This document shows positions 774 through 11,088 of a stretch of DNA of 64,000 nt, piece by piece. The stretch is from a virus. Position numbers and translations under genes: made by a program. The stretch spans positions 1-64,000 of IMG/VR virus record IMGVR_UViG_2700989228_000034. The stretch is one strand, 5' to 3'. A model generated the notes under the pieces. That model saw nothing but the letters and a program-made list of their open reading frames with translations. It did no database searches and had not been told where the DNA came from. Positions within the stretch are counted from its first letter, which is position 1; every line of letters begins with the position of its first letter.

Positions 774-847
774 GGGTCTATAGCTCAAGTGGTTAGAGCA
801 GCACACTCATAATGTGAAGGTTTAGGGTTCAAGTCCCTATTGACCCA
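774..847 (+). tRNA. tRNA-Met/Ile2 (anticodon CAT)
   Basis: Cloverleaf read by hand: acceptor GGGTCTA/TTGACCC (6 of 7 bp), D-arm GCTC-AAGTGGTTA-GAGC, anticodon loop CTCATAA, T-arm TAGGG-TTCAAGT-CCCTA. Confidence 0.75.
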
Positions 848-867
848 CTTTAAGTTTTTAACAAAAT

Positions 868-4445: not shown

Positions 4446-4707
4446 AATAATGATAACTTTAGAGAGGTCAACTCCATCTCAAAGAAAGAAAATAGAACTT
4501 ATTGAGAAATGGATGAACATCAAATTCAAAGGCTGTATCACTAGTAAAATAGATTGTCAACTATTTATAGATGATTACTATGAAGATGCAGTCTGTTTAC
4601 AACAAGAATACAACGAACTATGAAAGAAGAATATACATCATGGGAGTACTTCAAAGAAGATACTCCTATTCCTAACATCAAAGTAAATAATCACTAAACT
4701 AAACAAT

Positions 4708-5193
4708 ATGGAAACAAAAGAACTCAAAATACAAGTTCCAGAAGGTTATGAAATTGATAAAGAAAACTCTACATTTGAGCGTATCAAATTCAAGCCTATA
4801 AAGAAGGATATTACATATGAAGATGTGTGCAATAGTATGCTTAAAACAGGTTATTATACAGATAGTCGTGGTAACATTCTGCATGTTACAGAGTATGCTG
4901 ATGATGTCAAAATAGATAAAAATAATGCTACTAACGAAAAACAACTTAAAAAACTATTAGCACTAAATCAACTTCTTACTATTGCTGAATATTATAATAG
5001 GAATACTGCTAAATTAAATGTAAGATACCGTATATGCTATGATAGTACTAATTATTATTATAACGTAGTTCCTTACGAATCTTACAACTTTACATATAGT
5101 CTAGAAGCTCTATTTAATAATGAAGAAGATGCTCTAGCAGTAATTGATAACTCTAACTTCCGAGAAATTCTTGATACTATTTATAAAGATTAA
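4708..5193 (+). CDS. hypothetical protein
   Basis: 161-aa ORF. Confidence 0.35.
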   Translation: METKELKIQVPEGYEIDKENSTFERIKFKPIKKDITYEDVCNSMLKTGYYTDSRGNILHVTEYADDVKIDKNNATNEKQLKKLLALNQLLTIAEYYNRNTAKLNVRYRICYDSTNYYYNVVPYESYNFTYSLEALFNNEEDALAVIDNSNFREILDTIYKD

Positions 5194-5795
5194 TATTTAT
5201 GGATAAAGGTATAAAAAATTGTGAAGTATATAATATAGACATTGAAAATTGGAAAAACCATGCCTTTATTAATATAAAAGTAGAGGAGGGCTATACTATT
5301 GTCCTTATAATACATTTATAACTAAAGATTCTACCTATTATAAGAGTGAGATTAATTCAGGTAAATTTGAAATAATAGGCAAAATTAAGAATGAAGGTAA
5401 AGAATACTCTGTTCTTGGTAACTACGCATATAGTAATGGTTATCCTGGCTTGGGTAGCTTTATTTCTTATCAAAGTGTGAGTACTTCTGAAAGTAATTAT
5501 AGTGGATTTTTAGGTTGTGCCACTAAAGAGATTGCTCAACATTTCAGTAAATACTTTGGTATGCTCATTACTGAAGCCAAGTATGCAGATATGATAGACT
5601 TTGAAATCATAGAAATTAAATATCAATAATTATGGCAAAATTTACAGTAAAAGACCTTCGAGAGGCATTGAAGAACCTTGATGAAAGTAAGGAAGTTATA
5701 ATTGTAAACTCCTACTCAGGTAGTGACAAGATTGACATTGAATATATCAAGGAACTCAAAGAAAATGGTAAAGAATACTACAAAATTAATATCTA

Positions 5796-6239
5796 ATGGC
5801 AAAGATTAATTTCACAAAGGAACACTTTGATAAGATGTGCTCATTGCTTCTTACTATGTTGCTCAACAACAATACAGTAAATTCTAAGCTTGGTACACCT
5901 ATCAATGTAGTTGAGTTACTTCACACTACTACAATTAACTCTCTTAATAATATCAGACTTGCTTTATCTAATAAGATTGAGCAGCTTGAAAGTCAAGATG
6001 AGTGGATTGCAAGTGACTCTACTGCAAAGCAGTTAAATACTGCTAAAGAGCAGAAGGAGCTTGTGAACCTAGTAATAGGTTACAAGAGGTATAAAATGGA
6101 AGTTGAGGAAAATGCTCAGAAGAAAGCTATACTTACAGCTAAGCTTAAAGCTCTTAAAGAATCCCAGAAATCACCTGAAGATAAGATTAAGGAGCTTGAA
6201 GCAGAGCTTTCAGCAATAAGTGAAACTGAAACTTTCTAG
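5796..6239 (+). CDS. coiled-coil protein
   Basis: 147 aa with a Lys/Glu-rich heptad C-terminus; immediately upstream of the TROVE/vWA gene. Confidence 0.35.
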   Translation: MAKINFTKEHFDKMCSLLLTMLLNNNTVNSKLGTPINVVELLHTTTINSLNNIRLALSNKIEQLESQDEWIASDSTAKQLNTAKEQKELVNLVIGYKRYKMEVEENAQKKAILTAKLKALKESQKSPEDKIKELEAELSAISETETF

Positions 6240-6327
6240 TAGTATAAGGAAGACATATATAGTTCAAAGATAAAAAAGAATATCCTAACTACGTTACTTA
6301 CAAAAATAAAACAAAACATTAGCAAAA

Positions 6328-8151
6328 ATGGTACAGGTAAAATTAAACAAAAGTAACGATAATCCTTTTTATGGATTAAGAAGCTGCCTTAGACTCTTTC
6401 AGAGTGTAGGCAACACAATTGATGCATCATTACTTAATGCTTGTTGGTTAGAAGTTCGAGGAAATAAGGAATACAGGCAAATGTTCTTTAGTTTGCTTTT
6501 CTCAATTGGTGATATTACAGCTAGACAGCATAACATCTTTAAGGGTGTTAAGAGAGATAGTGGTGGTAATGCCAATAGAGAAGGTTTTCAAGTAGTTCTT
6601 GATTGGATGTGGAATAAACATCAAGCTCAATTTGTGAAGTTCCTTGAAGCAGGTTTATTTAATGAATATACTTGCTTTGATTTGCTGTTTAGGAATAGAG
6701 TACAAACTAAATGCTCTAGAGTTATTAGAATACACAATCTCTTTGCTGAAGTAAAATACAGAGAGGTTATTGCAAACTATCTCTATAAGGTTATTAATGG
6801 TAATAATCCTTTCAATAAAACTCTTGTTGCTAAATTCTTGACACTCCCTAGAGTAAGCAAAAGAAGTGGTCATAGCAAGATGCTTCCTGAAACTAAAAAG
6901 GTAATGGAAGATAAGGTCAAGTTACTTATAATGCTCTCAGAACTTATGGGTTGGGAGTATGAAGTAAATGATGGCTATGCTAACTTCAAGGGCTATAGGA
7001 AGTGGAGAAAGGATTATAATGGTGACCTTGAGTCAGTATTGTTCTCTACAGGCAAAATCAATGACTTTGATAAACAATCATTCATTGATTGGTTTGACAA
7101 GCTTCCTTCACAAGCAAGGTTTAGAGTTAAGAACAGAATCCTTTACAGTAAGATTAAAGATACTGAGAAGGCTAAATATCCTAAGTTCCAGCCTTGGCTT
7201 GCTGAATGGGAGAAATACAAGGAGTCTAAACAAGCTGAACAGAGAGTTCTAGAAGAAAAAGTTAGACAAGGGCAAGCTACAGAGGAAGATAAAATCAAGT
7301 TGAAGAAAGTTGCAAAGCAGGCTAAGGTCAATACAGGAGCAACTAACTTCAAAGAGCTATATAATGACATCTGTAATGATAATGTAGATAAGCTTAAGCT
7401 TGAAACATTCATGACTAAGGTTAATCTTCCTTATAATAGTCTTGTAATCATAGATGATTCAGGTTCTATGCATGGCAAACCTTTCAACTTTGCTTCATTC
7501 TTGGCTTCTGTATGTCTATGTAAGAACCCAGATGATGATGGTAGAAACTTACTTGGTTTCTTCAATACTAACAGCCACTGGCATACTTGTATAGATAGGA
7601 AGAATAATTCTATAAATTCTTTCATCAGAAGTGTGACAGTAAAGACTAAGCAAACTCCTTTTGTTGACCCTAAGAAGAGCTTCTATGAGAATTATCAATC
7701 TATCAAGAACTTCTGTAGTGCAGTATTCCAAGGTGGTGGTACTAATATTAGTAGAATACCTGATGATTTGCATAAAGAATGTCAGAAGAATCCTCAGATA
7801 CTTGATGCTCTGAAGAACTACCCTGTATGGACTATCATCAGTGATGGAGAATGGAACTCATTGTGGTCTCCTGAAGCTTCAATGAATGACTTTATGATGA
7901 GGTGTCAAAGATACTTTGGATTTAAGCCATATATTGTAGCTATTGATGTAGATGGTGGTTGGGGCTTTAGTAGTGCTTCTATCAATAGATTTGAAGGTAT
8001 TGAGAATATGATTTACATTCCTGCTAATATAGCACAGATTGAGCAGTTCTTAACTAACTTCAAAGATATGGATATTATGGATGTTTATACTCCTTTACAA
8101 TCATTGTTTAGGAGTAATAGATATGACATAGTGAGAGAGAATGTGCTTTAA
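6328..8151 (+). CDS. Ro60/TROVE-like N-domain + C-terminal von Willebrand A domain protein
   Basis: MIDAS vWA motif LVIIDDSGSMHG about 370 aa from the start, plus a TDG-type strand (WTIISDGEW). The N-domain has VLDWMWNKHQ and CFDLLFRNR, which resemble Ro60 AIADWYNEKG and HKDLLRLSH as recalled from memory. The layout, a ~370-aa helical domain followed by a vWA domain, matches Ro60/Rsr. Confidence 0.45.
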   Translation: MVQVKLNKSNDNPFYGLRSCLRLFQSVGNTIDASLLNACWLEVRGNKEYRQMFFSLLFSIGDITARQHNIFKGVKRDSGGNANREGFQVVLDWMWNKHQAQFVKFLEAGLFNEYTCFDLLFRNRVQTKCSRVIRIHNLFAEVKYREVIANYLYKVINGNNPFNKTLVAKFLTLPRVSKRSGHSKMLPETKKVMEDKVKLLIMLSELMGWEYEVNDGYANFKGYRKWRKDYNGDLESVLFSTGKINDFDKQSFIDWFDKLPSQARFRVKNRILYSKIKDTEKAKYPKFQPWLAEWEKYKESKQAEQRVLEEKVRQGQATEEDKIKLKKVAKQAKVNTGATNFKELYNDICNDNVDKLKLETFMTKVNLPYNSLVIIDDSGSMHGKPFNFASFLASVCLCKNPDDDGRNLLGFFNTNSHWHTCIDRKNNSINSFIRSVTVKTKQTPFVDPKKSFYENYQSIKNFCSAVFQGGGTNISRIPDDLHKECQKNPQILDALKNYPVWTIISDGEWNSLWSPEASMNDFMMRCQRYFGFKPYIVAIDVDGGWGFSSASINRFEGIENMIYIPANIAQIEQFLTNFKDMDIMDVYTPLQSLFRSNRYDIVRENVL

Positions 8152-8349
8152 TAGCACAAATCTATGATACTTACAACATTTTATAATTTGCTAAAATTAA
8201 GATAAAATATATATAAGTATCAATAAGGGTATAGGAGGAGTGATACCTTCTATACTCACTTCAAGACACTTACAAATTTATTTGCTTTTATAAAAAGGAT
8301 GACATAGATTTTATTATATTAGTGTCTACAAACATTCAGTCACTTACAA

Positions 8350-8428
8350 TACTAATAGCATTAGCTCATTTGGGTAGAGCATTAGACTTGTAATCTAAGG
8401 GTAGTTGGTTCAATTCCAACATGTATAT
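8350..8428 (+). ncRNA. tRNA-Thr(TGT)-like element with an unpaired acceptor stem (pseudo-tRNA or Y-RNA-like)
   Basis: canonical D-arm GCTC-ATTTGGGTA-GAGC, anticodon arm TTAGA-CTTGTAA-TCTAA and T-arm GTTGG-TTCAATT-CCAAC, but the 5' ATAGCAT cannot pair with the 3' ATGTATA. The unit is enclosed by the flanking stem AGTCACT(8338-8344)/AGTGACT(8433-8439). Confidence 0.45.
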
Positions 8429-8445
8429 AAATAGTGACTATACAA

Positions 8446-8556
8446 GGGGAAGTAGCTAAAATGGTTTAATAGTATCTTAGATACTTACAATACTAAATCA
8501 ATAAGCAATAGATTTCATAAACTATCAATATGTAGGTTTGAGTCCTACCTTCCCCA
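8446..8556 (+). ncRNA. tRNA-like RNA with a ~57-nt insertion in place of the anticodon arm
   Basis: perfect 7-bp acceptor GGGGAAG/CTTCCCC, D-arm-like GCTA-AAATGGTTTAA-TAGT, T-arm GTAGG-TTTGAGT-CCTAC; the internal region contains hairpin AGTATC-TTA-GATACT followed by TACAATACT; total 111 nt. Confidence 0.45.
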
Positions 8557-8561
8557 CTTTT

Positions 8562-8627
8562 GGCACTTACAAAAGTAACTTTGTTTAATTATTTTTGGTA
8601 CAATACATAACAAGTAGTGCCAATTTT
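8562..8627 (+). ncRNA. motif-bearing stem element without a tRNA-like core
   Basis: GGCACT-TACAAAAG...(48 nt)...AGTGCC, 6-bp closing stem. Confidence 0.3.
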
Positions 8628-8629
8628 AT

Positions 8630-8743
8630 AAGGCAGTCGTCTAGTGGTCAGGACACAGGTTAATAAATATTAGTATCTGATGATACTTACAATACTTAAA
8701 AAAATGGGTCTCTGTAACAGAAGTTCGATTCTTCTCTGCCTTA
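8630..8743 (+). ncRNA. tRNA-like RNA with a ~58-nt insertion in place of the anticodon arm
   Basis: perfect 7-bp acceptor AAGGCAG/CTGCCTT, canonical D-arm GTCT-AGTGGTCA-GGAC and T-arm AGAAG-TTCGATT-CTTCT; the internal region contains hairpin AGTATC-TGAT-GATACT followed by TACAATACTT; possible closing pairs ACAGG/TCTGT; total 114 nt. Confidence 0.5.
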
Positions 8744-8747
8744 CTTC

Positions 8748-8858
8748 AGCTACTTACAATACTATTATTTCATAGGTTCGAGTCCTATATTACCCTTCTT
8801 ATGGATAATTAGCATAGTGGTTAATGCAATACACTGTTAATGTATCAATTAAGTAGCT
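8748..8858 (+). ncRNA. circularly permuted tRNA-like RNA (Asn-GTT-like) enclosed by a 9-bp terminal stem
   Basis: Order 5'-3': stem strand AGCTACTTA; T-arm ATAGG-TTCGAGT-CCTAT; acceptor strands joined as hairpin ATTACCC-ttcttat-GGATAAT (6 of 7 bp); D-arm GCAT-AGTGGTTA-ATGC; hairpin ATACA-CTGTTAA-TGTAT; stem strand TAAGTAGCT. Confidence 0.45.
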
Positions 8859-8907
8859 ATTTTTAGAAAACATTTTTCATTTCATATTAATTTTAATAAA
8901 CAAAATT

Positions 8908-9252
8908 ATGGCAACAAACAAAAAAAATCAGATGTCTATCATCAATGAAGAGAGCATCAAGAAAACACTTGAAGCATTTAAGTCAGCTTACAAAAAGAAC
9001 AAGGAAAAGTATGTAGAAGAGAATGTTAAGGTTGAGGATGTAGTAAGCCTCACTGAAGGATTTTCTGGAAAGAATACTCTTCTTGCAACAACTGTTATCA
9101 TCTCTGTGATGCTCGCTATGCCTCCAAAAGAGTTTATGGCATTCATGGACACTGCAAAGTCAATATCTAGGGTAAAGTTACTTGAAGCTATGCAGGAAAT
9201 TCTTGAGGAGAAGGGAGTGAAGAAAGGTGCAGACAATGACATTGACAACTAA
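8908..9252 (+). CDS. hypothetical protein
   Basis: 114-aa ORF. Confidence 0.35.
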   Translation: MATNKKNQMSIINEESIKKTLEAFKSAYKKNKEKYVEENVKVEDVVSLTEGFSGKNTLLATTVIISVMLAMPPKEFMAFMDTAKSISRVKLLEAMQEILEEKGVKKGADNDIDN

Positions 9253-9911: not shown

Positions 9912-10114
9912 GTAAAGGGAAAAAATACAAAATACCTCATAAATACCTCAGCAAATATCCTGTAAGGAAAAGAGCTAGATATAAAGTAATGGGAGGTAAA
10001 AATGGTGAAAAAGCAAAGTTTAAGTACTTTAGACACAAAAACCTCTGGAAGACCTTAGAAGGTCATATATCTATGAGGAAGATGGTGGCTAGGTATATTT
10101 GGTTTTGGGATTAA
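9908..10114 (+). CDS. small highly basic protein
   Basis: 68 aa, Lys/Arg-rich. Confidence 0.3.
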   Translation: MSKGKKYKIPHKYLSKYPVRKRARYKVMGGKNGEKAKFKYFRHKNLWKTLEGHISMRKMVARYIWFWD

Positions 10115-10118
10115 TAAT

Positions 10119-10310
10119 ATGAGAAAATTCATTATCAAGATAGTATGTTCAGTGCTGGGTTTATTCCTAGCACTAAATGCTGTTACTCAATTACTCACCA
10201 TGAGTAACACAGCTGCTAACATTGCAGGAATTGTATTGTTAATGGTGACTATATGGACAGGTGTAGAAGTAATAATTAAATTCACTAAAACAGAAGAAAA
10301 TGAAGAGTAA
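10119..10310 (+). CDS. holin-like small membrane protein
   Basis: 63 aa with two TM helices and a charged C-terminus; upstream of the endolysin. Confidence 0.35.
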   Translation: MRKFIIKIVCSVLGLFLALNAVTQLLTMSNTAANIAGIVLLMVTIWTGVEVIIKFTKTEENEE

Positions 10311-11088
10311 AGTAATTATGATGTGCCTTATGGCAGTATTTACCATGTTGGGTATGTCCTCATGTGGTTATGAGAGAGTAGATGCAGGTTGTGAGGGTAT
10401 TAAGGTAAATCTCTATGGCTCTGAGAAAGGTGTAGATGATGTATCTTTGGTTACTGGTGCAGTATGGTATAATCCATTTACTGAGCAAGTTTATGAATAT
10501 CCTACTTATGTCCAGACAGTAGATTATCCTGCTTTCACAATTAATGCAAAGGATGGCTCAGAGTTCAGTATTGACCCTACTATTTCATTGAAAATTGCTG
10601 ATGGTAAATCACCTCAGGTATTCAAGAAATATAGAAAGGAGTTGAAGGATGTTATCAATGGGACTCTCTTTAACTATGTAAAGGATGCCTTCAGGATTCA
10701 GCTTAATAAGTACACTACTGATGAGATTGTATCAAACAGAGATATGGTAGAAAAGGCTATTGAAGCACATTTGTCTAAGGCATTGCTCAAGGAAAACTTT
10801 CAGCTTGAGCAACTTACTTCAGGTCTTAAATATCCTCAGTCTATTGTAGATGCAGTTAATGCAAAGAATGCTGCGATACAAAAAGCTCAGAAGGCTCAGA
10901 ATGAATTGGCTGTAGTAAAGGCAGAGGCAGAGAAGAAGGTAGTTGCAGCACAGGCTGAAGCAGAGGCTAATAAGCTTAGAACACAGGCTTTGACACCATT
11001 AATTCTTAAACAGCAGTGGATTGAGAAGTGGGATGGTAAGCTTCCTGTATATGGTAGTTTGCCTACATTGTTCAAAGGTATTGAGTAA
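10300..11088 (+). CDS. lipoprotein with C-terminal Ala/Glu-rich coiled-coil (spanin- or SPFH-like)
   Basis: signal peptide with lipobox (GMSSC); AQAEAEANKLRTQ coiled coil. Confidence 0.35.
   Translation: MKSKVIMMCLMAVFTMLGMSSCGYERVDAGCEGIKVNLYGSEKGVDDVSLVTGAVWYNPFTEQVYEYPTYVQTVDYPAFTINAKDGSEFSIDPTISLKIADGKSPQVFKKYRKELKDVINGTLFNYVKDAFRIQLNKYTTDEIVSNRDMVEKAIEAHLSKALLKENFQLEQLTSGLKYPQSIVDAVNAKNAAIQKAQKAQNELAVVKAEAEKKVVAAQAEAEANKLRTQALTPLILKQQWIEKWDGKLPVYGSLPTLFKGIE

Follow-up and report, generated by a model that had tools for sequence, protein, structure and literature searches.

The window, a 64,000-nucleotide stretch of the IMG/VR virus record IMGVR_UViG_2700989228_000034 (positions 1 to 64,000), derives from a crAss-like phage of the Steigviridae type. 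A gene encoding a 607-aa Ro60-like protein was followed on the same strand by seven small RNA units within positions 8165-8858. Each unit contained one copy of a shared module, a 7-bp helix (xGNNACU/AGUNNCx) followed by UACAA, referred to here as the handle. An eighth copy surrounded the ribosome-binding region and AUG of the protein gene. The features of the locus were:

6292-6358, + strand: handle enclosing the translation start of the 607-aa open reading frame (ORF), with an exact 7-bp partner; 5' arm CGTTACT (6292-6298), UACAA (6299-6303), 3' arm AGTAACG (6352-6358).
6328-8151, + strand: Ro60-like protein gene, 607 aa; diverged TROVE-like helical N-terminal part (residues ~1-365) and vWA domain with complete MIDAS (~366-607).
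8165-8222, + strand: first short bracketed unit, directly 3' of the stop codon, with no tRNA inside; TGATACT and UACAA, ~44 nt of content, AGTATCA.
8264-8327, + strand: second short bracketed unit; AGACACT and UACAA, ~50 nt of content, AGTGTCT.
8338-8439, + strand: bracketed tRNA unit; AGTCACT and UACAAUACUAAU, tRNA-Thr(UGU)-like body at 8355-8427 (Rfam tRNA, 54.6 bits), AUAAAU, AGTGACT; RNAalifold was run on 17 such units.
8446-8556, + strand: tRNA with internal handle (Rfam tRNA, 41.4 bits, with a 37-nt insertion; MFE fold).
8560-8623, + strand: third short bracketed unit; TTGGCACT and UACAA, 48 nt of content, AGTGCCAA (8 bp).
8630-8743, + strand: tRNA-like RNA with an anticodon-loop insert (Rfam tRNA, 42.7 bits, with a 51-nt insertion).
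8748-8858, + strand: circularly permuted tRNA-Asn(GUU), from the MFE fold, Rfam (tRNA match at 8803-8879, 34.9 bits) and re-permutation with ARAGORN; AGCTACT and UACAA leader, T arm (8772-8788), acceptor 3' strand and discriminator (8789-8796), 6-nt linker (8797-8802), acceptor 5' strand, D arm and anticodon arm (8803-8845), CAAUUA, AGTAGCT (8852-8858).

The ORF had the layout proposed in the first-pass annotation, a helical N-terminal domain followed by a vWA domain with a MIDAS. The strings quoted there (LVIIDDSGSMHG, TIISDGEW, VLDWMWNKHQ and CFDLLFRNR) were all found in the translation, and an AF2 model (pLDDT 88.4) placed ~365 mostly helical N-terminal residues before an alpha/beta vWA fold. 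The complete MIDAS motif (DxSxS...T...D) in the C-terminal vWA domain is a feature of the Ro60/TROVE family; its residues D376, S378, S380, T472 and D506 were invariant in 45 homologues with identity down to 20%. The Ro60 identity suggested by the same annotation was upheld by profile comparisons but not by Pfam. Pfam TROVE (PF05731), the model named there for checking the protein, did not match the 607-aa protein at E<=10 or any of the 45 family members at E<=1, and two positive controls passed (phiLo Ro60, 28 bits; crAss001 Gp96, 49 bits). PHROG 850 matched the protein (E 5.5e-5, residues 77-403) and 40 of the 45 family members (best E 3.7e-21), with alignments collinear over most of the profile (e.g., 72-546 against 75-446 of 476). 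Members of this PHROG included the structurally and biochemically characterised phiLo Ro60 (E 5e-38) as well as crAss001 Gp96. Comparison with eight phage TROVE proteins by hhalign gave a probability of 97.7% (E 1.4e-12; query 294-600, template 211-457) over the vWA domain and ~80 TROVE residues, leaving the first ~290 residues unaligned. In both comparisons, profile-level homology to an experimentally validated Ro60 extended beyond the vWA domain. These sequence profiles support the 607-aa protein as a remote, strongly diverged homologue of the Ro60 family.

The handle helix contained fixed G-C, A-U, C-G and U-A pairs, while two to three pairs covaried freely. The UACAA was single-stranded and lay on one strand only, 3' of the helix arm. 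Three forms were seen: a leader and trailer helix bracketing a tRNA or a short spacer RNA; a hairpin lying within the D-loop, anticodon loop or variable arm of a tRNA; and a helix that joins the ends of a tRNA gene in circularly permuted order. Among relatives, 129 of 166 ACTTACAA motifs had an exact 7-mer partner, compared with 6 on average and at most 14 in permuted controls. RNAalifold on the 17 bracketed tRNA units recovered the terminal helix with 0 broken pairs and three compensatory columns. Single mismatches in the helix were mostly G.U (~15) and rarely A.C (1), an excess indicating that pairing occurs in plus-strand RNA. Across 50 distinct loci (protein identity down to 28%), the motif was found 311 times, 301 times on the plus strand and 10 times on the minus strand. 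The module, common to the four tRNA-like elements, the three short non-tRNA units and the ORF leader, was absent from the first-pass annotation, and the combination of helix and UACAA appears to be undescribed.

An ordinary phage tRNA cluster with decayed pseudogenes could also carry a repeated motif, as a transcription signal or cassette end unrelated to the protein. In the first case the motif would act as promoter or terminator of a phage or host RNA polymerase and may resemble the hairpin-type signals of phage N4; in the second it would be the inverted repeat at the end of a small DNA cassette or mobile element. The motif does precede genes and tRNAs on the transcribed strand, and the early promoters of the crAss-like virion RNA polymerase, an enzyme that prefers single-stranded templates, are undefined (bioRxiv 10.1101/2020.03.07.982082). 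In different phages, arms that share their variable bases enclose different contents, as cassettes would; the arms of unit 8264-8327 enclose tRNA-Lys and tRNA-Thr in L001 and L003. HNH and NUMOD1 homing-endonuclease domains were also encoded nearby in relatives. A promoter, however, has no need of the perfect covariation seen between handle partners 40-115 nt apart, and the G.U excess points to the sense-strand RNA. The 3' arm of the leader copy sits within coding sequence, and sigma-70-like sites were not enriched in the region. The motif was confined to the surroundings of this gene family in relatives of 28 to 96% identity, and paired copies within the window occurred only at this locus. 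Stems that covary and anticodons that make sense persist in the interrupted and permuted units, which are therefore not decayed. This explanation was judged very improbable.

All four tRNA-like elements that the first-pass annotation had placed after the ORF matched the Rfam tRNA model above its gathering score of 29 bits. The model fitted them only with 37- or 51-nt insertions, a gapped acceptor stem or a missing T arm; ARAGORN called none of the four in 8330-8880, and none formed the canonical continuous cloverleaf of ~72-90 nt with a 7-nt anticodon loop. The earlier statement that none is a normal tRNA agrees with the ARAGORN result, but the body at 8355-8427 is a near-normal tRNA-Thr(UGU). 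Its acceptor stem, formerly described as unpaired, pairs when one purine is bulged in the 3' strand (read from the sequence), as it does in L005.

Two elements had been thought to carry inserts of ~57 nt in place of the anticodon arm. This description roughly suits 8630-8743, in which a 51-nt insert replaces the anticodon loop and the acceptor, D and T arms and anticodon stem are intact. The insert comprises a hairpin, AGUAUC-UGAU-GAUACU (8672-8687), followed by UACAA (8688-8692). The anticodon stem covaries relative to L005 (CAGG/UCUG vs UAGG/CCUA; two sequences, read by eye), and no anticodon was identifiable in this unit, with in-silico deletion tests giving none consistently. It does not suit 8446-8556, in which the insert measures 37 nt and lies in the D-loop. 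There the hairpin AGUAUC-UUA-GAUACU (8471-8485) and UACAA (8486-8490) sit within an outer helix, the acceptor stem is GGGGAAG/CUUCCCC, and an imperfect CAU anticodon arm is kept. Deleting the insert in silico gave Met(CAU) for this unit, and Lys(UUU) in L005 and L009. Among the short units, 8165-8222 had the same position and the same arms in relatives, and the content of 8560-8623 varied between relatives and was not conserved.

The remaining element had been read as circularly permuted within a 9-bp terminal stem, in agreement with the MFE fold (8748-8756/8850-8858, 9 bp) and with ARAGORN, which called a 73-nt tRNA-Asn(GUU) after in-silico re-permutation. Altogether, the arrays held 7-10 RNAs per genome. 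ARAGORN called a tRNA in 27 of the 70 long bracketed units analysed in relatives, six of these calls having an anticodon loop of 8 or 6 nt, and in-silico removal or re-permutation restored canonical tRNAs for many amino acids. Genuine tRNAs with plausible anticodons make up many of the units in relatives, so the array RNAs are not simply non-coding Y RNAs. A search for Rfam Y_RNA/YrlA, likewise named as a check in the earlier annotation, found no match in 8100-8960 (cmscan, E<=10), where only tRNA and two chance matches were returned.

Alternatively, the module could direct RNA processing or splicing, a function that the bulge-helix-bulge (BHB) motif has in archaea. An endonuclease would cut at the module and a ligase (e.g., host RtcB) would join the ends. 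Interrupted genes would thereby lose their inserts by splicing, transcripts of permuted genes would become circles that RNase P then opens, and tRNAs in brackets would be freed from a polycistron. This process would use the Ro60-like protein as scaffold or chaperone, or have nothing to do with it, and the copy in the mRNA would provide feedback through self-cleavage. Archaeal and algal discontinuous tRNA genes include BHB introns at non-canonical positions, split tRNAs, and the permuted tRNAs of Cyanidioschyzon merolae and Thermofilum (PMC4090602). As in those genes, one small RNA structural module was found at every discontinuity, together with inserts at several internal positions, circular permutation and leader-trailer stems. 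The module positions (acceptor ends, D-loop, anticodon loop, variable loop and permuted termini) match the spectrum of BHB contexts, and the recovery of canonical tRNAs in silico fits a signal of this kind. An RNA whose anticodon loop is replaced by an insert cannot decode unless it is spliced, and the acceptor linkers of permuted genes, only 1-7 nt long, demand cleavage. In Salmonella, rsr and the Y RNA genes lie in one operon with rtcB/rtcA (PMC7790460).

The BHB geometry itself was nevertheless absent, the module being an uninterrupted 7-8-bp helix (7 bp in its basic form) with unpaired UACAA on one side only. Unlike the archaeal and algal genes, these belong to a phage genome and a bacterial host (Bacteroidales), and no splicing endonuclease or RNA ligase domains were found in ten neighbouring ORFs or in the neighbours of relatives. 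The distance from module to exon border was not fixed (leaders 9-21 nt, trailers 1-13 nt). Cutting the copy inside the ORF would destroy the mRNA, and short units with non-conserved content would yield no product. A processing signal appears rather unlikely, although it is the strongest of the alternatives.

The array adjoined the protein gene, upstream or downstream, in all 50 distinct loci, and 25 of the 26 genuine matches in a pattern scan of IMG/VR lay on contigs encoding the protein. In crAss001 and cr106_1, which encode a canonical TROVE protein, the same architecture was built on another motif, a helix followed by UACUUCAA. These patterns bear on whether a host factor, and not the phage protein, recognises the handle while the Ro60-like protein acts on other RNAs. 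The handle would then be a decoy or substrate for an endoribonuclease (a MazF/PemK-type toxin with single-stranded ACA-/UAC-sites) or be read by a host tRNA-processing enzyme. MazF-family toxins have short, single-stranded recognition sites containing ACA or UAC, which the invariant single-stranded UACAA beside the helix resembles, and phage tRNA arrays are counter-measures to host tRNA nucleases. The sequence-specific covarying helix, the strict genomic coupling to the protein family and the change of motif along with protein subtype would all go unexplained, and a host factor is accordingly an improbable reader of the handle.

The genes for Y RNAs lie next to that for Ro60; these RNAs bind by means of a stem and conserved motif, and they often include tRNA-like domains in which the T arm comes first and the D arm second (PMC4201824). 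In the Thermus phage phiLo, Ro60 binds the adjacent Y-like RNAs Yrl1 and Yrl2 (PMC12135203). The present locus resembles these systems (PMC4201824, PMC12135203) in having a protein of the same PHROG, with a mostly helical N-terminal part and a vWA/MIDAS domain, beside several small RNAs, each with a stem of conserved pairs and an adjoining conserved single-stranded motif. The YrlA arrangement, in which the acceptor stem is closed and the T arm precedes the D arm, was found in 8748-8858 and ~30 units in relatives. YrlA of M. smegmatis is cut by RNase P and receives CCA (PMC4201824). In contrast to Ro60 and phiLo, the protein is too diverged for Pfam TROVE and ~100 aa longer. The array motif is UACAA after a G-N-Y-A-C-U helix, compared with the GGUCCGA/CGAA type of Y RNAs, and the RNAs are more numerous than the 1-4 of Ro60/Y systems. 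Most array units, unlike YrlA, keep a complete anticodon arm with a normal anticodon. Further differences from Ro60/Y systems are the placement of the handle in the D-loop, anticodon loop, variable arm or acceptor ends and the copy enclosing the start codon of the protein.

The closest counterpart is crAss001 Gp96 (Steigviridae). The first-pass annotation was aware of no described Ro60-Y-RNA-like module in crAss-like phages, but the TROVE protein of crAss001 is already known, as are phage Ro60-Y RNA pairs; Gp96 is the product of an early gene and a 'possible ribonucleoprotein component' (PMC8375218, PMC10136315). The 607-aa protein shares its PHROG and occupies the same genomic slot, between a tRNA-Arg/HNH region and SPFH, glucosaminidase and helicase genes. 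Gp96 is likewise followed by a ~900-nt unannotated gap with tRNA-like RNAs bearing large inserts, in which the module of helix and UACUUCAA is repeated in bracket and hairpin forms as here. Gp96 differs in being a canonical TROVE protein of 472 aa, in lacking BLAST similarity to the 607-aa protein, in the motif of its RNAs (UACUUCAA vs UACAA), and in its 5' leader, where no motif was seen. We know of no description of RNA partners of Gp96.

A bacterial precedent for the permuted gene of a tRNA-like molecule is found in the circularly permuted two-piece tmRNA genes of alpha-proteobacteria and cyanobacteria, whose transcript is cut at the acceptor end into two base-paired pieces without ligation. 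The permuted genes described here encode tRNAs and have a shared handle motif and a candidate Ro60 partner, neither of which tmRNA has. As far as we could find, permuted or interrupted tRNA genes with intact anticodons are apparently unreported in phages or bacteria.

At the start of the protein gene, the leader and ATG (6328) sit in the loop of the handle, the 3' arm of which spans codons 9-11. In 41 of the 50 distinct relatives, the motif lay <=120 nt upstream of the ATG with a partner of at least 6 bp downstream, and the outermost pair varied among loci from C-G to U-A or U.G. This placement suggests a simple autoregulatory circuit, in which the protein would bind the copy around its own start codon and limit its own translation.

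Taken jointly, the demonstrated protein homology, RNA structure and covariation, and genomic coupling point to an early-region module of crAss-like phages in which a diverged Ro60 is paired with a small-RNA array sharing one putative protein-binding handle. We assign this reading a probability of roughly 55%. The module is most likely a handle bound by the Ro60-like protein, much as Ro60 binds the conserved stem and neighbouring nucleotides of Y RNAs. Binding would assemble RNPs with phage tRNAs, tRNA precursors and tRNA mimics, and by analogy with bacterial Ro60/Y RNA/exonuclease complexes these RNPs probably function in early infection to mature the phage tRNA set, control its quality or protect it. 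The locus thus has the appearance of a Ro60-Y RNA partnership in a new, tRNA-based form. Several observations weigh against this reading: the Pfam TROVE result across the 45 family members and the N-terminal residues left unaligned by hhalign; the departure of UACAA from the canonical Y RNA site and the negative Rfam Y_RNA/YrlA search; the many units with normal anticodons for many amino acids; and L049, in which handle-bracketed tRNAs were present and no protein gene was detected within the 14.5 kb examined. A handle found at many positions of the tRNA body also fits a processing signal that works independently of position better than an RNP of fixed architecture, and the short acceptor linkers call for cleavage to free the acceptor ends, implying real tRNA function.

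A bolder and more tentative proposal is that Crassvirales of Bacteroidales express much of their tRNA set from discontinuous genes, permuted or interrupted in the D-loop, anticodon loop or variable arm, with each break marked by the non-BHB helix-UACAA. The mature forms might be two-piece or extended tRNAs clamped by the helix and the Ro60-like protein, or tRNAs spliced via a cut-and-ligate pathway new to bacteria.

Conservation of Ro60 and Y RNAs extends from bacteria to humans, in whom Ro60 is a major autoantigen in lupus and Sjogren syndrome. To our knowledge, the molecular job of Ro60 and Y RNAs in bacteria and phages is poorly defined. Here there are many candidate partners, most of them recognisable tRNAs, and covariation resolves their handle to single nucleotides, which turns the role of Ro60 into a concrete question of tRNA maturation, protection or timing. 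crAss001 on Bacteroides intestinalis provides a cultured relative for testing. Since standard tRNA finders miss permuted and interrupted genes, the tRNA inventories of crAss-like phages are probably undercounted, including those used for explaining stop-codon recoding. If the discontinuous-gene proposal is true, with either outcome, bacteria and phages would have their first known system of permuted or split tRNA genes, and Ro60 would gain a defined role in tRNA biogenesis.

The 607-aa ORF named in the first-pass annotation was present at 6328-8151 on the plus strand and contained the strings quoted there. Its assignment to Ro60 was not recovered by curated models: Pfam gave no TROVE match for the 607-aa protein or for 45 homologues. 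By Pfam, TROVE and DUF2828 were absent from the protein and 55 homologues, which gave just weak VWA_2, DUF7788, and vWA_Ro60 hints, and there was no Pfam vWA call for the 607-aa protein itself. Searching the PDB with the protein by phmmer returned no relevant match; with the family profile, the MIDAS region alone was matched, and Ro60 entries (E 0.03-3.4) were not significant. PHROG 850 ("RNA-binding protein") was matched by residues 77-403 of the protein and by 40 of 45 family members (best E 3.7e-21), with alignments collinear over most of the profile. The same profile was matched by the Ro60 of Thermus phage phiLo (5e-38; Pfam TROVE also passed), which has been crystallised and binds Y RNA (PMC12135203), and by Gp96, the TROVE protein of crAss001 (9e-33; Pfam TROVE passed at 49 bits). 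When the family profile was compared with a profile of eight phage TROVE proteins, the probability was 97.7% (E 1.4e-12) over the entire vWA domain and ~80 residues upstream. The AF2 model in use, built on 45 diverse sequences, was confident (pLDDT 88.4, pTM 0.82); 13 close sequences gave a poor model (pLDDT 68.6). All five MIDAS residues were invariant among the 45 homologues. This remote-homology evidence is consistent with Ro60 kinship of the 607-aa protein, despite its being missed by curated models. The family is narrow, since an exhaustive representative search yielded just 181 clusters among 1.8 billion representatives, and it was abundant in ~100-kb crAss-like contigs. A tblastn search of INPHARED (~50,000 deposited phage genomes) with the 607-aa protein gave no match.

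All four odd tRNA-like elements described downstream of the ORF in the first-pass annotation were matched by the Rfam tRNA model and are therefore real. The kinship with Y RNAs proposed there found no counterpart in Rfam: Y_RNA, YrlA, intron, and ribozyme families had no match in the RNA region after the ORF even at E<=10. ARAGORN called three canonical tRNAs only in the window, all within 774-1991 and none downstream of the ORF. The RNA elements share a module, termed the handle, that consists of a 7-bp helix followed by single-stranded UACAA.

Features of the locus and canonical tRNAs of the window
774-848, tRNA-Met(CAU), without handle
1186-1260, tRNA-Arg(UCU), without handle
1919-1991, tRNA-Arg(CCU), without handle
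6292-6358, bracket (arms pair) around the leader, AUG, and codons 1-11 of the ORF
6328-8151, plus strand, 607-aa ORF
8165-8222, 8264-8327, and 8560-8623, short brackets with 44-50 nt of non-conserved content
8338-8439, bracketed tRNA-Thr(UGU), tRNA at 8355-8427 (Rfam tRNA 54.6 bits)
8446-8556, tRNA with a D-loop hairpin (Rfam tRNA 41.4 bits, 37-nt D-loop insertion)
8630-8743, tRNA body with a hairpin replacing the anticodon loop (Rfam tRNA 42.7 bits, 51-nt insertion)
8748-8858, bracketed circularly permuted tRNA (Rfam tRNA match at 8803-8879, 34.9 bits, T arm not in the right place)

By reading of the sequence, the acceptor stem of tRNA-Thr(UGU) pairs given one bulged purine in the 3' strand, as it does in a related locus (L005), with which the anticodon stem of the element at 8630-8743 also covaries. 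The element described earlier as circularly permuted became a clean 73-nt tRNA-Asn(GUU) once 8748-8858 was re-permuted in silico. The canonical tRNAs without a handle lie 4-5 kb upstream, so the phage has both tagged and untagged tRNAs.

The sequence ACTTACAA was found eight times in 8140-8910 and once 32 nt upstream of the ORF ATG, and likewise in relatives; no paired copies occurred elsewhere in the 64-kb window. The four to five bases preceding ACT were variable and always complementary to one of two partners, located either 36-116 nt downstream of the motif (bracket form) or ~15 nt upstream of it (hairpin form). Among 166 motifs from 25 non-redundant sources, 129 had an exact Watson-Crick 7-mer partner. 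When arms were swapped between instances a mean of 6 and a maximum of 14 partners were found, and a direct-repeat control gave 1. The consensus was (a)G-N-Y-A-C-U followed by UACAA(ua) on one strand and A-G-U-R-N-C-(u) on the other, with four invariant pairs: G-C, A-U, C-G, and U-A. From 17 bracketed tRNAs of 14 sources, RNAalifold predicted the terminal helix unaided, with 0 broken pairs and compensatory changes in three columns, and recovered the D, anticodon, and T arms alongside. In its hairpin form the module is seated on top of an outer helix, which turns UACAAU(A) into a 3'-side internal loop. An example read from the sequence is the tRNA-Arg(ACG) of locus L001, AAAAUUGA-aca-AGUGACA-cac-UGUCACU-uacaaua-UCAAUUUU; the MFE fold of the window hairpin unit had the same design.

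One-mismatch helices were mostly G.U (~15) and rarely A.C (1), with the remainder mostly at the last pair. This excess of G.U over A.C points to pairing in plus-strand RNA and counts against a DNA-level or promoter reading. A promoter role for ACTTACAA was rejected in view of the long-range covariation, the G.U bias, and the location of a partner inside the ORF. In the study of phage phi14:2, no common motif was found upstream of early transcripts. Readings of the module as a promoter or terminator, as a mobile cassette, or as a decoy for host nuclease are less likely.

In total, 113 bracket-form elements had an exact partner: 43 were short and without a tRNA, and 70 were long. Among the 70 long elements, ARAGORN called 27 as tRNAs, including six whose anticodon loop has 8 or 6 nt. 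In an enlarged set, 32 of 94 long elements contained an ordinary tRNA, with the following identities: Lys, Ile, Thr, Gln, Pro, Asn, Ser, Leu, Asp, and a tca anticodon. These had a leader of 9-21 nt beginning with UACAA and a trailer of 1-13 nt, mostly 1-5. In-silico re-permutation that placed the junction in the variable loop turned about twenty further long elements into canonical tRNAs, each with one consistent anticodon (Asn, Asp, Ile, Cys, Thr, Phe, Lys, Ser, Val, Leu, His, and Tyr), and about ten were permuted at the anticodon loop. Deleting hairpin inserts in silico restored tRNAs with intact anticodon arms where the insert interrupted the D-loop, the D-arm or, for Leu and Ser, the natural variable arm. 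A second class of insert replaces the anticodon loop, and its deletion left no consistent anticodon. The array thus appears to comprise the phage tRNA set, or part of it, together with tRNA mimics and short RNAs, all under one common tag.

Several handle-bracketed tRNAs had 8-nt anticodon loops (ARAGORN "anticodons" cggg, tttg, ttct, and ttgg) or a 6-nt loop and could be frameshift-type or non-decoding: L001 6874-6949, L003 6208-6283, L018 ~4991-5059 and ~5785-5857, and L029 1595-1665. ARAGORN called handle-bracketed tRNAs "SeC(tca)" at L076 ~2218-2320 and L086 ~2386-2490. A UCA anticodon would read UGA, and these tRNAs may be opal suppressors, relevant to how crAss-like phages recode stop codons.

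In the permuted genes, the linker between the 3' and 5' acceptor ends was 1-7 nt, a length at which the acceptor stem would hardly be able to form before cleavage, presumably by RNase P. In the tRNA-like domain of bacterial YrlA the T arm precedes the D arm, and one YrlA is an RNase P substrate to which CCA is added (PMC4201824). The short linkers, and the presence of the module at every kind of discontinuity, would suit a position-independent processing or splicing signal like the bulge-helix-bulge (BHB) motif of archaeal tRNAs. This is the main rival to a protein-binding handle; it is rather unlikely, as BHB geometry was absent, distances to exon borders followed no fixed rule, no nuclease or ligase domain was found among ten adjacent ORFs or the neighbours in relatives, and a copy of the module is located within the ORF. 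Both readings could hold together, given that in bacteria Ro60 proteins aid the maturation of RNA by exonucleases. The inserts were too short for group I introns, lacked bulges, and had no Rfam intron or ribozyme match; their reading as group I or BHB introns was rejected, as was that of ACTTACAA as an anticodon loop.

Across 50 distinct loci (protein identity 28-96%), the motif occurred 301 times on the strand of the gene vs. 10 times on the opposite strand. In 40 loci at least four copies were present on the gene's strand, and in 41 a leader copy with a downstream partner was no more than 120 nt from the ATG. In the most diverged loci the array was upstream of the gene instead of downstream, still adjoining it. 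An independent test for the leader helix assumed a constant codon offset for the 3' arm; owing to N-terminal indels, it succeeded in only ~22 of 35 loci. Scanning IMG/VR with a pattern for one arm type gave 29 hits, of which 26 were genuine and 25 of these were on contigs encoding the protein; hits in L054, L058, and L064 were dismissed as chance matches in coding DNA. The exception was contig IMGVR_UViG_3300045988_126148 (L049), on which no 607-aa homologue was detected within the 14.5 kb examined.

Two handle-bracketed tRNAs and a tmRNA lie at 4400-6060 of L049, near a 463-aa ORF without a PHROG match. In several related crAss-like phages a tmRNA lies 1-2 kb upstream of the Ro60-like or TROVE gene.

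tmRNA positions in related loci
L016, 1295-1690
L018, 1292-1681
L027, 1981-2468
L029, 1689-2201
L049, ~4653-5077
L074, 1-231

The tRNA beside the tmRNA (Pro/Arg-like) was bracketed by an AGTCACT...AGTGACT handle in L029, L049, L047, and L066. A group I intron (Rfam 99.9 bits) was found at 1695-1935 of L019, ~1 kb upstream of the Ro60-like gene.

In crAss001, Gp96 lies between a tRNA-Arg/HNH region and genes for an SPFH protein, a peptidoglycan hydrolase, and an HKD nuclease/helicase. The window had a matching order: tRNA-Arg, small ORFs, the 607-aa ORF, 750 nt of RNA genes, a Band_7 protein, a glucosaminidase, and a helicase. The module was absent at the syntenic position of cr116_1, a closer relative and the nearest deposited genome. 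Since crAss001 shares the slot and cr116_1 is without the module, the Ro60-like module behaves as a cassette of the early region that can be exchanged and that exists in at least two protein versions. At 10039-10920, cr116_1 (L042) has an unrelated 293-aa hypothetical gene instead, without an RNA array, and its DNA just downstream of the syntenic site was 88.7% identical to the window.

The module of crAss001 and cr106_1, which encode canonical TROVE proteins, has the same design as in the 607-aa phages but differs in its single-stranded motif: UACUUCAA comes after a helix whose end is ACU or AGU, and bracket and hairpin forms both occur. It was found within tRNA-like RNAs carrying an insert of 82 nt, and the stems show covariation between the two phages. 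RNA motif and protein subtype thus change together. The unannotated gap of ~900 nt after Gp96 (L073 15966-16870, minus strand; crAss001 record 95965-96869) contained at least two tRNA-like RNAs, one at Rfam tRNA 46.6 bits with an 82-nt insert, and four copies of the helix and UACUUCAA module, indicating that this cultured model phage has the same kind of array. Annotated tRNAs also lie 50-300 nt downstream of the TROVE gene in the unrelated phages Rhizobium RHph_TM21B (L103 1738-1821) and Streptomyces BRock (L105 2002-2074). These cases hint at a general connection of Ro60 with tRNA genes among phages.

In known cases, Ro60 recognises Y RNAs encoded beside its gene by a conserved stem and the neighbouring nucleotides, and the phiLo Ro60 binds host PNPase as well as adjoining Y-like RNAs (PMC12135203). 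The simplest reading, to which we give a probability of roughly 55%, is that the helix-UACAA module is a binding handle of the diverged 607-aa Ro60 and that the array RNAs would be its partners, with the copy around its own start codon allowing negative autoregulation.

Ro60-Y RNA pairs are already known in other phages, and the TROVE protein of crAss001 is on record, both as the product of an early gene and as a "possible ribonucleoprotein component" (PMC8375218, PMC10136315). On DUF2828, Ro60 in crAss-like phages, and permuted or split phage tRNAs, the literature gave just the mention of this crAss001 "TROVE domain protein". We found no published description in the searchable literature of the diverged 607-aa family, of the helix-UACAA (or UACUUCAA) handle, of arrays of bracketed, interrupted, and permuted tRNA genes, or of a handle on the leader of a Ro60-like protein itself. 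The way in which the tRNA genes are organised has a substantial chance of being itself new for bacteria and phages.
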